From the NCBI RefSeq assembly GCF_054482595.1, contig NZ_CM137008.1: a stretch of DNA of 64,000 bases; one strand, written 5' to 3'. Within the stretch, counting starts at the first letter, position 1. Each line of letters starts with the position of its first letter. Positions 1,030-64,000 of the stretch are shown here, in pieces. Below the pieces are notes generated by a model, which did no database searches, was not told the DNA's origin, and worked only from the letters and a program-made list of their open reading frames with translations. The translations under genes were made by a program, and so were the position numbers.

Positions 1030-1106
<77 letters not shown>

Positions 1107-1139
1107 TCACCGTATTGCTTTTACTTCATCAAATTTGAT

Positions 1140-1216
<77 letters not shown>

Positions 1217-1249
1217 TCACCGTACTGCTTTACTTCATCAAATTTTAAT

Positions 1250-1326
<77 letters not shown>

Positions 1327-2720: not shown

Positions 2721-2818
2721 GCCGGATGCGGCGTGAACGCCTTATCCAGCCTACAAATCATGCAAATCCAAAATATTGCAGGAGTTATGTAGGCCTGATA
2801 AGCGTAGCGCATCAGGCA
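2721..2818. repeat. REP/BIME element (two REP units in inverted orientation)
   Basis: gccggatgcggcgtgaacgccttatccagcctac and gtaggcctgataagcgtagcgcatcaggc palindromic units. Confidence 0.7.
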
Positions 2819-5376: not shown

Positions 5377-5567
5377 GGTACTCCTCGGCTTGATGCACCG
5401 ATCGTGACGCAAAATTCACTTTGATACAAGGAGAGTGCTAACCATCAGAATTATCTGGATATCCTGGCGAAGCCGCGTAAGTAACATATGCTGAATAGTG
5501 TTAGGCGTTAATTTTAGCCTGTTAATCAATACTATTAAGATTTATTAATCGCTTTAAGGAGAAGATG

Positions 5568-5795
5568 ATGAAAAAGACTGCCGCAATTATTTCTGCCTGT
5601 ATGCTGACTTTTGCCCTGAGCGCCTGTTCCGGTTCGAACTATGTGATGCACACCAATGACGGACGTACCATCGTCTCTGACGGCAAACCACAGACTGATA
5701 ACGATACCGGTATGATTTCGTATAAAGACGCTAATGGCAACAAACAGCAGATCAACCGTACTGACGTGAAAGAGATGGTCGAACTGGATCAGTAA
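5568..5795 (+). CDS. ygdI: Small lipoprotein YgdI (DUF903 family)
   Basis: 75-aa ORF with signal peptide and lipobox LSAC; start could equally be the Met one codon upstream (5565). Confidence 0.8.
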
Positions 5796-5811
5796 TTCGC
5801 GATCGCAAGGT

Positions 5812-6017
5812 AAAAAAAAGCACCGCAATTAGGCGGTGCTACATTAATCACTATGGACAGACAGGGTAAATGTACAGGAAGTGAAAAAAGGTAGCTTTGC
5901 TACCATGGTCTGAATCGCAGACCAATTGCAAACACAACAACACAACATCACAACCGTAAGCCAAAAGTTCACCAGAACACGCATTCCGATAAAACTTTTC
6001 GTTCCGGCTCAGGAAGT
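5812..6017 (-). ncRNA. gcvB: GcvB small regulatory RNA
   Basis: Minus strand reads ACTTCCTGAGCCGGAACGAAAAGTTTTATCGG...GU-rich GTTGTGATGTTGTGTTGTTGTGTTTG...terminator hairpin plus U-run; divergent from gcvA. Confidence 0.88.
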
Positions 6018-6145
6018 GCCGCCACTATAGGTATTTGCTGGTAGAAGCTCAACGGACAATTTATAATGGCTCAGATTAAAAAAACTAATAGGTTACATAG
6101 TGTGATCTAATTGTTAAATTCATTTAACATCAAAGTTTAAAAGCC

Positions 6146-7063
6146 ATGTCTAAACGATTACCACCGCTAAATGCCTTACGAGTTTTTGATGCCGCAGCAC
6201 GCCATTTAAGTTTCACTCGCGCAGCAGAAGAGCTTTTTGTGACCCAGGCCGCAGTAAGTCATCAAATCAAGTCTCTTGAGGATTTTTTGGGGCTAAAACT
6301 GTTCCGCCGCCGTAATCGTTCACTCCTGCTGACCGAGGAAGGGCAAAGCTATTTCCTCGATATCAAAGAGATATTTTCGCAATTAACCGAAGCGACGCGT
6401 AAACTCCAGGCCCGTAGCGCCAAGGGGGCGTTGACGGTCAGTTTACTCCCCAGTTTCGCCATTCATTGGTTGGTTCCGCGACTTTCCAGCTTTAATTCAG
6501 CTTATCCGGGAATTGACGTTCGAATCCAGGCGGTTGATCGTCAGGAAGATAAGCTGGCGGATGATGTTGATGTGGCGATATTTTATGGTCGGGGCAACTG
6601 GCCGGGGCTACGGGTGGAAAAACTTTACGCCGAATATTTATTGCCGGTGTGTTCGCCGCTACTGCTGACTGGCGAAAAACCCTTGAAGACCCCGGAAGAT
6701 CTGGCTAAACATACGTTATTACATGATGCGTCACGCCGTGACTGGCAGACATATACCCGACAATTGGGGTTAAATCATATCAACGTTCAGCAAGGGCCAA
6801 TTTTTAGCCATAGCGCCATGGTGCTGCAAGCGGCTATTCACGGGCAGGGAGTGGCGCTGGCAAATAACGTGATGGCGCAATCTGAAATCGAGGCCGGACG
6901 TCTTGTTTGCCCGTTTAATGATGTTCTGGTCAGTAAAAACGCTTTTTATCTGGTTTGTCATGACAGCCAGGCAGAACTGGGTAAAATAGCCGCCTTTCGT
7001 CAATGGATCCTGGCGAAAGCTGCTGCTGAACAAGAAAAATTCCGCTTTCGTTATGAACAATAA
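6146..7063 (+). CDS. gcvA: LysR-family transcriptional regulator of the glycine cleavage system
   Basis: 305-aa ORF; N-terminal HTH (LSFTRAAEELFVTQAAVSHQIKSLE); divergent from gcvB. Confidence 0.92.
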   Translation: MSKRLPPLNALRVFDAAARHLSFTRAAEELFVTQAAVSHQIKSLEDFLGLKLFRRRNRSLLLTEEGQSYFLDIKEIFSQLTEATRKLQARSAKGALTVSLLPSFAIHWLVPRLSSFNSAYPGIDVRIQAVDRQEDKLADDVDVAIFYGRGNWPGLRVEKLYAEYLLPVCSPLLLTGEKPLKTPEDLAKHTLLHDASRRDWQTYTRQLGLNHINVQQGPIFSHSAMVLQAAIHGQGVALANNVMAQSEIEAGRLVCPFNDVLVSKNAFYLVCHDSQAELGKIAAFRQWILAKAAAEQEKFRFRYEQ

Positions 7064-63822: not shown

Positions 63823-64000
63823 TTATTTTGCGAGCAGCATTCCTGATTTTAAACGTGAACGCCGCTGGAAGAATTATCAGGTATAGAATGGCGTCGGGTG
63901 CTTGAGGCTGTCTGGCGTTAAGCATTCGCGAGGTTCCAGATGGACAAAAGCCCCAGGCGATATTTCTATCAACCTGAGGCTCGCGTTCGAACGTAGCAAT

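Follow-up and report, generated by a model that had tools for sequence, protein, structure and literature searches.

GcvB has been under study since 2000. It is an Hfq-associated small RNA (sRNA) of about 200 nt, encoded divergently from gcvA, and it is induced by GcvA at high glycine and repressed by GcvR (PMC9299463). Three of its regions, R1, R2 and R3, serve in the repression of more than 50 mRNAs, mostly of amino-acid and peptide transport and metabolism. R1 is regarded as the main seed, R2 has been named and given a role, and RNase E degrades GcvB once the RNA has paired with the SroC sponge (PMC9299463). It has also been reported that the RNA has two terminators, t1 and t2, and is not translated (PMC1557403).

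In other pairs, such as oxyR-oxyS, a LysR-type regulator gene lies divergent from an Hfq-dependent sRNA that the regulator activates, with inverted-repeat sites in the shared intergenic region (PMC5002191). The gcvA-gcvB pair differs from these in its regulator, its signal (glycine), its site consensus (CTAAT) and its sRNA family. Moreover, the inverted repeats described for its intergenic region are two in number, not three (PMC5002191). Another related kind of element is the bidirectional terminator between convergent E. coli genes. As cited in a preprint, such an element is a single hairpin to which both 3' ends map and at which they overlap (Ju et al. 2019, via bioRxiv 10.1101/2022.10.23.513370).

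The DNA analysed here, the window, is a stretch of 64,000 nt from contig NZ_CM137008.1 (assembly GCF_054482595.1). When the whole window was scanned with cmscan, a full-length match to the Rfam family RF00022 was found at 6017..5812 on the minus strand. It covers model positions 1-204 of 204 with 199.0 bits and an E value of 1.1e-46, the gathering score being 42. The 206-nt gene, with its 5' end at 6017 and its 3' end at 5812, is identical to K-12 MG1655 b4443 (NC_000913.3 2942696-2942901, 'small regulatory RNA GcvB'). An earlier note on this DNA had proposed that the minus strand between ygdI and gcvA is GcvB, and had named the lack of a covariance-model match as the result that would speak against it. 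The Rfam scan instead gave the full-length match of 199 bits at the same coordinates, 5812-6017, and the identity to the K-12 gene points the same way. The G/U-rich stretch to which the note had drawn attention, CAAACACAACAACACAACATCACAAC on the plus strand, was found at 5929-5954, that is, at GcvB nt 64-89. The ygdI-gcvA intergenic region, which had been described as not empty, is indeed filled by GcvB. Window 5812-6017 (-) is, with hardly any room for doubt, the gcvB gene of Escherichia coli, already known as the reference GcvB.

The resemblance to the K-12 locus goes beyond the RNA itself. The two share the 206-nt sequence, the neighbouring genes, the 16-nt and 128-nt gaps, the promoter and the terminators. 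Across ygdI, gcvB and the 5' part of gcvA, they differ in a single base, at window 6141, where the plus strand has A and K-12 has T. The base precedes the gcvA ATG by 5 nt and may belong to the ribosome-binding region. Of 5426 complete E. coli genomes, 5425 contain the 701 nt from 5500 to 6200, and in 5385 the identity is at least 99%.

With a copy identical to the K-12 reference, the locus matters little as a discovery, and its value lies in a point of annotation. Unlike the K-12 RefSeq record, where gcvB is annotated as an ncRNA, the PGAP-annotated record NZ_CP025916.1, which is 100% identical to the window here, carries no annotated feature in its 350-bp ygdI-gcvA gap (locus 1797-2146, window 5796-6145). 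Thus, GcvB goes unannotated in at least one PGAP record.

According to the ORF list and the RefSeq annotation, gcvB is flanked by ygdI, a DUF903 lipoprotein gene at 5568..5795 (+) that is convergent with it, and by gcvA, the gene of the LysR-type regulator at 6146..7063 (+), from which it is divergent. The ygdI stop codon, TAA, occupies 5793-5795 and is followed by 16 nt (5796-5811) up to the gcvB 3' end, while 128 nt separate the gcvB 5' end from the gcvA ATG at 6146. For a comparison with other species, one genome per species was scanned for a pattern that extends over R1 and R2, which yielded 120 loci. Wherever the flank of a related locus is long enough, gcvA lies divergently upstream of gcvB, an arrangement kept in Enterobacteriaceae, Yersiniaceae, Hafniaceae, Morganellaceae and Pasteurellaceae. 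The divergence from gcvA that had been read from the sequence agrees both with the coordinates and with this conserved synteny. Morganellaceae, Edwardsiella, Plesiomonas and Pasteurellaceae lack the convergent ygdI but still keep the gcvA-gcvB synteny.

In the 54 related loci that have a convergent ygdI, the median distance from this gene to the gcvB 3' end is 16 nt (range 9-162 nt), with 46 of the 54 falling between 9 and 43 nt. The gap is wider in Yersinia and Rahnella (81-162 nt), and several Serratia loci have gaps of 10-28 nt. The tight packing of ygdI and gcvB is mainly a trait of the Enterobacteriaceae.

A consensus scan placed a sigma-70-like promoter for gcvB at 6024..6052 on the minus strand. 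Its predicted -35 element, TTGAGC (6052..6047), is separated by a 17-nt spacer from the -10 element, TATAGT (6029..6024), which ends 7 nt before +1. Of 79 distinct upstream regions, at least 61 retain TATAGT and about 54 retain TTGAG. Further upstream, a pattern match revealed a candidate recognition repeat for the LysR-type GcvA, ATTAAAAAAACTAAT, at 6075..6089. It has the form ATTA-N7-TAAT, contains CTAAT, and is centred at -65, 65 nt upstream of the gcvB +1. The motifs described for GcvA are CTAAT and ATTA-N7-TAAT, in two inverted repeats, IR1 at -65 and IR2 at -43 from the gcvB start (PMC5002191); a 48-bp GcvA DNase I footprint in the gcvA-gcvB intergenic region is cited in the same paper. 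The suggestion that a GcvA site be looked for in the 128-bp gap led to an ATTA-N7-TAAT motif at exactly the published IR1 position, -65, and for this putative site both motif and position are confirmed by sequence. Of the 79 upstream regions, 60 retain the CTAAT half-site, which reads ATTAG at -72 on the gcvB strand, and 28 have the full repeat within 1 nt of -65. IR2, centred at -43 (window ~6053-6067), is a poor match here, with only the ATAAT half recognisable, which fits the statement in PMC5002191 that it is the weaker repeat.

The fold of the RNA was considered next to its family structure. When the RF00022 consensus structure is mapped onto the sequence, 46 of its 47 pairs are standard. 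The 5' part forms stem-loop 1 (nt 9-59, 5959..6009 on the minus strand), in whose helices 1-3 compensatory changes are seen for 17 of 20 pairs. It is followed by R1, the G/U-rich seed region GGUUGUGAUGUUGUGUUGUUGUGUUUGCA (nt 63-91, 5927..5955), which is single-stranded in the Rfam consensus. Stem-loop 2 (nt 94-112, 5906..5924) corresponds to helix 4, with compensatory changes in 7 of 8 pairs. Stem-loop 3 and its U6 make up the internal terminator t1 (nt 114-134, 5884..5904), which was also returned by the terminator scan (5904..5890 plus T6) with an approximate d-score of +8.3; all 6 pairs of its helices 5-6 show compensatory changes. The conserved R2, CACUUCCUGUACA (nt 135-147, 5871..5883), is again unpaired in the consensus structure. 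Stem-loop 4 (nt 145-177, 5841..5873) carries in its loop the R3 seed (about G156, G160 and C162), and the bases at these three positions are those expected from the mutants published for R3, G156C, G160C and C162G. Finally, stem-loop 5 with its U8 is terminator t2 (nt 178-206, 5812..5840), for which the terminator scan gave a stem at 5840..5819 and a U-run at 5819..5812. Its helix 8 has compensatory changes in 7 of 8 pairs. All these elements lie on the minus strand.

The structure is well supported by covariation. A covariance model was built from five enterobacterial sequences and the Rfam structure; it scored gcvB at 258.6 bits, recovered 92 homologues in 100 sources and marked only one site in the window. 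None of 8 chance pattern hits from unrelated phyla was matched by it. In 87 distinct homologues from Enterobacterales and Pasteurellaceae, 92.8% of the cells are standard pairs and 42 of the 47 consensus pairs have changes on both sides, in an alignment that was fitted to the model structure. None of 500 shuffles reached the observed values of pairing and covariation, and when the partners were slid by 1-3 columns, the pairing fell to 35-45%. The energy of the single sequence agrees with this picture: GcvB folds at -62.1 kcal/mol (z = -3.6), and none of 200 dinucleotide shuffles folds as well. Among 42 diverse homologues, nt 74-90 of R1 are invariant, an invariance that is partly selected for, as the pattern used for the collection required TGTGTTTGCA (nt 81-90). 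Nt 133-145 of the R2 region are invariant too, which is largely selected for by the required CACTTCCTGT (nt 135-144). RNAalifold on a plain MAFFT alignment of the 42 homologues gave a near-empty and partly spurious consensus, because the stems are misaligned between Enterobacterales and Pasteurellaceae, and it was replaced by the covariance-model alignment.

What the RNA is likely to do in this strain can be set out from work on the same sequence. Transcription of gcvB would proceed leftward, on the minus strand, from the sigma-70 promoter, which would overlap the divergent promoter region of gcvA. When glycine is plentiful, GcvA would act at the CTAAT / ATTA-N7-TAAT site at -65 and activate gcvB. 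The 206-nt product is predicted to fold into five stem-loops and to end in a Rho-independent terminator whose tail of 8 U is typical of 3' ends bound by Hfq. With the help of Hfq, the single-stranded and G/U-rich R1, together with R2 and R3, would pair with C/A-rich sequences at or near ribosome-binding sites. More than 50 mRNAs would be targeted in this way, coding for biosynthetic enzymes and for transporters of amino acids and peptides (dppA, oppA, sstT, cycA and others), and the pairing would block their translation and promote their decay. Hfq-dependent repression via R1 has been shown experimentally for the K-12 RNA, whose sequence is identical (PMC9299463). The control by glycine and GcvA, the dependence on Hfq, the regulon and the lack of translation are thus carried over from the literature on the identical sequence and probably apply here.

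The pairing of R1 with two targets was also computed. With the C/A-rich K-12 leader of dppA, R1 is predicted to pair at -44..-11 with -26.2 kcal/mol, a value that 49 of 1000 dinucleotide shuffles equal or better; with the K-12 leader of oppA it would pair at -10..+14 with -23.1 kcal/mol (45 of 1000 shuffles). The predicted energies are only modestly better than those of the shuffles, about 95% of which are beaten. This modest margin is to be expected, as the shuffles keep the C/A-rich composition of the leaders. RNAduplex runs with full-length GcvB against 100-nt leaders had returned unrealistically long duplexes, and the calculation was redone with R1 alone.

The convergent side of the locus is where it departs from a simple picture. 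The hairpin at 5819-5840 is about as stable on the minus strand (-13.8 kcal/mol) as on the plus strand (-14.4 kcal/mol), and what follows it is very unequal. In the gcvB direction, the tail is U8, with a T-tract weight of 4.87 and a d-score of +32. On the ygdI side, the hairpin is followed by ACAUUAAUCACUAUG (also given as ACAUUAAUC), with a weight of 0.44 and a d-score of -46; the d-scores are of the d'Aubenton-Carafa type, computed with modern energy parameters, and are approximate. The pattern scan returned no plus-strand terminator, both terminator-like hairpins, t1 and t2, being on the minus strand. Across the 54 related loci, the T weight is at most 1.46 in the ygdI direction and at least 5.1 in the gcvB direction, and a U-tract in the ygdI direction is found neither here nor in any of them. 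Because the tail on the ygdI side is complementary to GcvB stem-loop 4, it is not free to evolve a U-tract. Judged by these features, the hairpin is a predicted canonical intrinsic terminator for gcvB only.

Term-seq data from K-12 were brought to bear on this point with the relation window = 2948713 - K-12 coordinate; the data are thus those of K-12, which differs here by one base. The 'primary' ygdI 3' end at K-12 2942870(-) corresponds to window 5843 (+), 3 nt past the hairpin, and was supported by 36,630 reads in one growth condition and 441,780 in another (PMC7815308, supplementary file 1). The GcvB 3' end is listed at K-12 2942894(+), or window 5819 (PMC7815308). By the transferred coordinates, the 3' ends of the ygdI mRNA and GcvB overlap by 32 nt. 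As both ends map at the hairpin 5819-5840, it is shared and defines the two of them. The earlier note had described a hairpin and U-run about 16 nt from the ygdI stop, which is what was measured (16 nt, 5796-5811, with T8), and had called it a bidirectional terminator shared with ygdI. The sharing is upheld by the two K-12 ends; a U-tract or canonical terminator in the ygdI direction is not found. Like the bidirectional terminators of Ju et al. 2019, as these are cited in the preprint, the element is a single hairpin at which both ends map and overlap. It differs from them, as far as they are described there, in that one direction is a strong canonical intrinsic terminator and the Hfq-binding 3' end of an sRNA. 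A literature search returned nothing specific on ygdI and 'bidirectional terminator', and the ygdI/gcvB pair is not mentioned in the preprint on collision termination (bioRxiv 10.1101/2022.10.23.513370).

How the ygdI transcripts come to end at 5843 can be explained in two ways. The explanation that fares best, and that is considered reasonably probable, is that transcription of ygdI passes the hairpin into the antisense strand of gcvB and is stopped elsewhere by Rho or by collision with the polymerases on gcvB. The end at 5843 would then be made by exonucleases halted at the hairpin, which would serve as a 3' stabiliser. This agrees with the missing U-tract in the ygdI direction and with the short distance, just 3 nt, between the stem and the mapped end. 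For convergent E. coli genes, a non-canonical mode of termination assisted by collision has been reported (bioRxiv 10.1101/2022.10.23.513370), and Adams et al. point out that many mapped 3' ends are processed (PMC7815308). Two observations do not sit easily with such processing. The Term-seq resource lists no Rho termination region on the ygdI strand, the one that it lists, K-12 2943134(+), being on the gcvB strand. Also, very large amounts of the ygdI 3' end are seen in minimal medium, in which a low level of GcvB may be expected, and this would argue against a need for collisions.

Alternatively, the hairpin 5819-5840 may be a true bidirectional intrinsic terminator that releases RNA polymerase from both ygdI and gcvB, an explanation that is held only tentatively. 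The plus-strand hairpin is no less stable than its counterpart (-14.4 kcal/mol), is located 23 nt after the ygdI stop and has no other candidate terminator near it. The dominant ygdI 3' end lies 3 nt after the stem even in a condition for which no GcvB 3' end is curated, so that convergent transcription of gcvB is seemingly not needed for it. However, release at this place would have to occur with a T weight of 0.44 against 4.87 and a d-score of -46 against +32, and the same asymmetry is found in 54 of 54 related loci, where the T weight never exceeds 1.46. Nor is the position of the end decisive for release, as a 3'-to-5' exonuclease that trims the RNA as far as a stable hairpin would likewise leave an end 3 nt past the stem. 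On balance, processing of a longer ygdI transcript down to a stabilising hairpin is judged somewhat likelier than true termination there.

Whichever way the end is made, the 32-nt sense-antisense overlap of ygdI and GcvB could be functional. The ygdI 3' end, or convergent transcription, could modulate the termination, Hfq loading or stability of GcvB, or the reverse could apply. Such a role is regarded as improbable. If true, it would link the amino-acid sRNA network to a lipoprotein gene whose function is unknown. Close ygdI-gcvB spacing across the Enterobacteriaceae is compatible with functional coupling, and equally with genome compaction.

That the region encodes a small protein, instead of or besides the regulatory RNA, is suggested by an ATG-initiated ORF of 46 codons within gcvB (5984..5844 on the minus strand), and can practically be dismissed: among 87 distinct homologues, the 31 in which the ORF persists are all close relatives, and it is lost, truncated or frame-shifted in the other 56, where the RNA structure and R1/R2 are conserved; on a direct reading of the sequence, its ATG falls within the apical part of stem-loop 1 and is not preceded by a Shine-Dalgarno sequence. 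The 46-aa ORF was rejected as a small protein for this poor conservation.

The Term-seq tables hold some further features of the locus. The Rho termination region on the gcvB strand, K-12 2943134(+), corresponds to window ~5579 (-), antisense to the start of ygdI, with a Rho score of 10.25 and a p value of 2e-71 (Adams et al., PMC7815308). It suggests read-through of the GcvB terminator by part of the transcription, which Rho would then stop before csdA. An internal GcvB 3' end is listed within R1 at K-12 2942763(+), which is window 5950 (-) or nt 68, with 1,692 reads in one growth condition (PMC7815308). No end is listed in this table at the internal terminator t1 (nt ~134) (PMC7815308). This is at odds with the statement, attributed to Urbanowski 2000 as cited in PMC1557403, that about 90% of the transcripts stop at t1.

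Other RNA genes were also seen in the window. The CsrB sRNA is present as a full-length RF00018 match at 24198-24557 (+), with 380 bits and an E value of 1e-110. It lies ~18.4 kb from gcvB, which we take to be about the gcvB-csrB distance in K-12. A match of 46.5 bits to the Rfam sRNA family ES036 (CssrF) is found at 2754-2796 (+), the gathering score being 37.6. At the far edge, a sok-type antitoxin RNA (RF01794, 67.5 bits) at 63896-64000 (+) is cut by the end of the window and suggests a hok/sok-like type I toxin-antitoxin locus there. Near the opposite end, three tandem tRNA-Met (CAT) genes with identical scores and a spacing of 110 nt lie at 1030-1326 (-), and these are presumably the initiator tRNA cluster metZWV of K-12.
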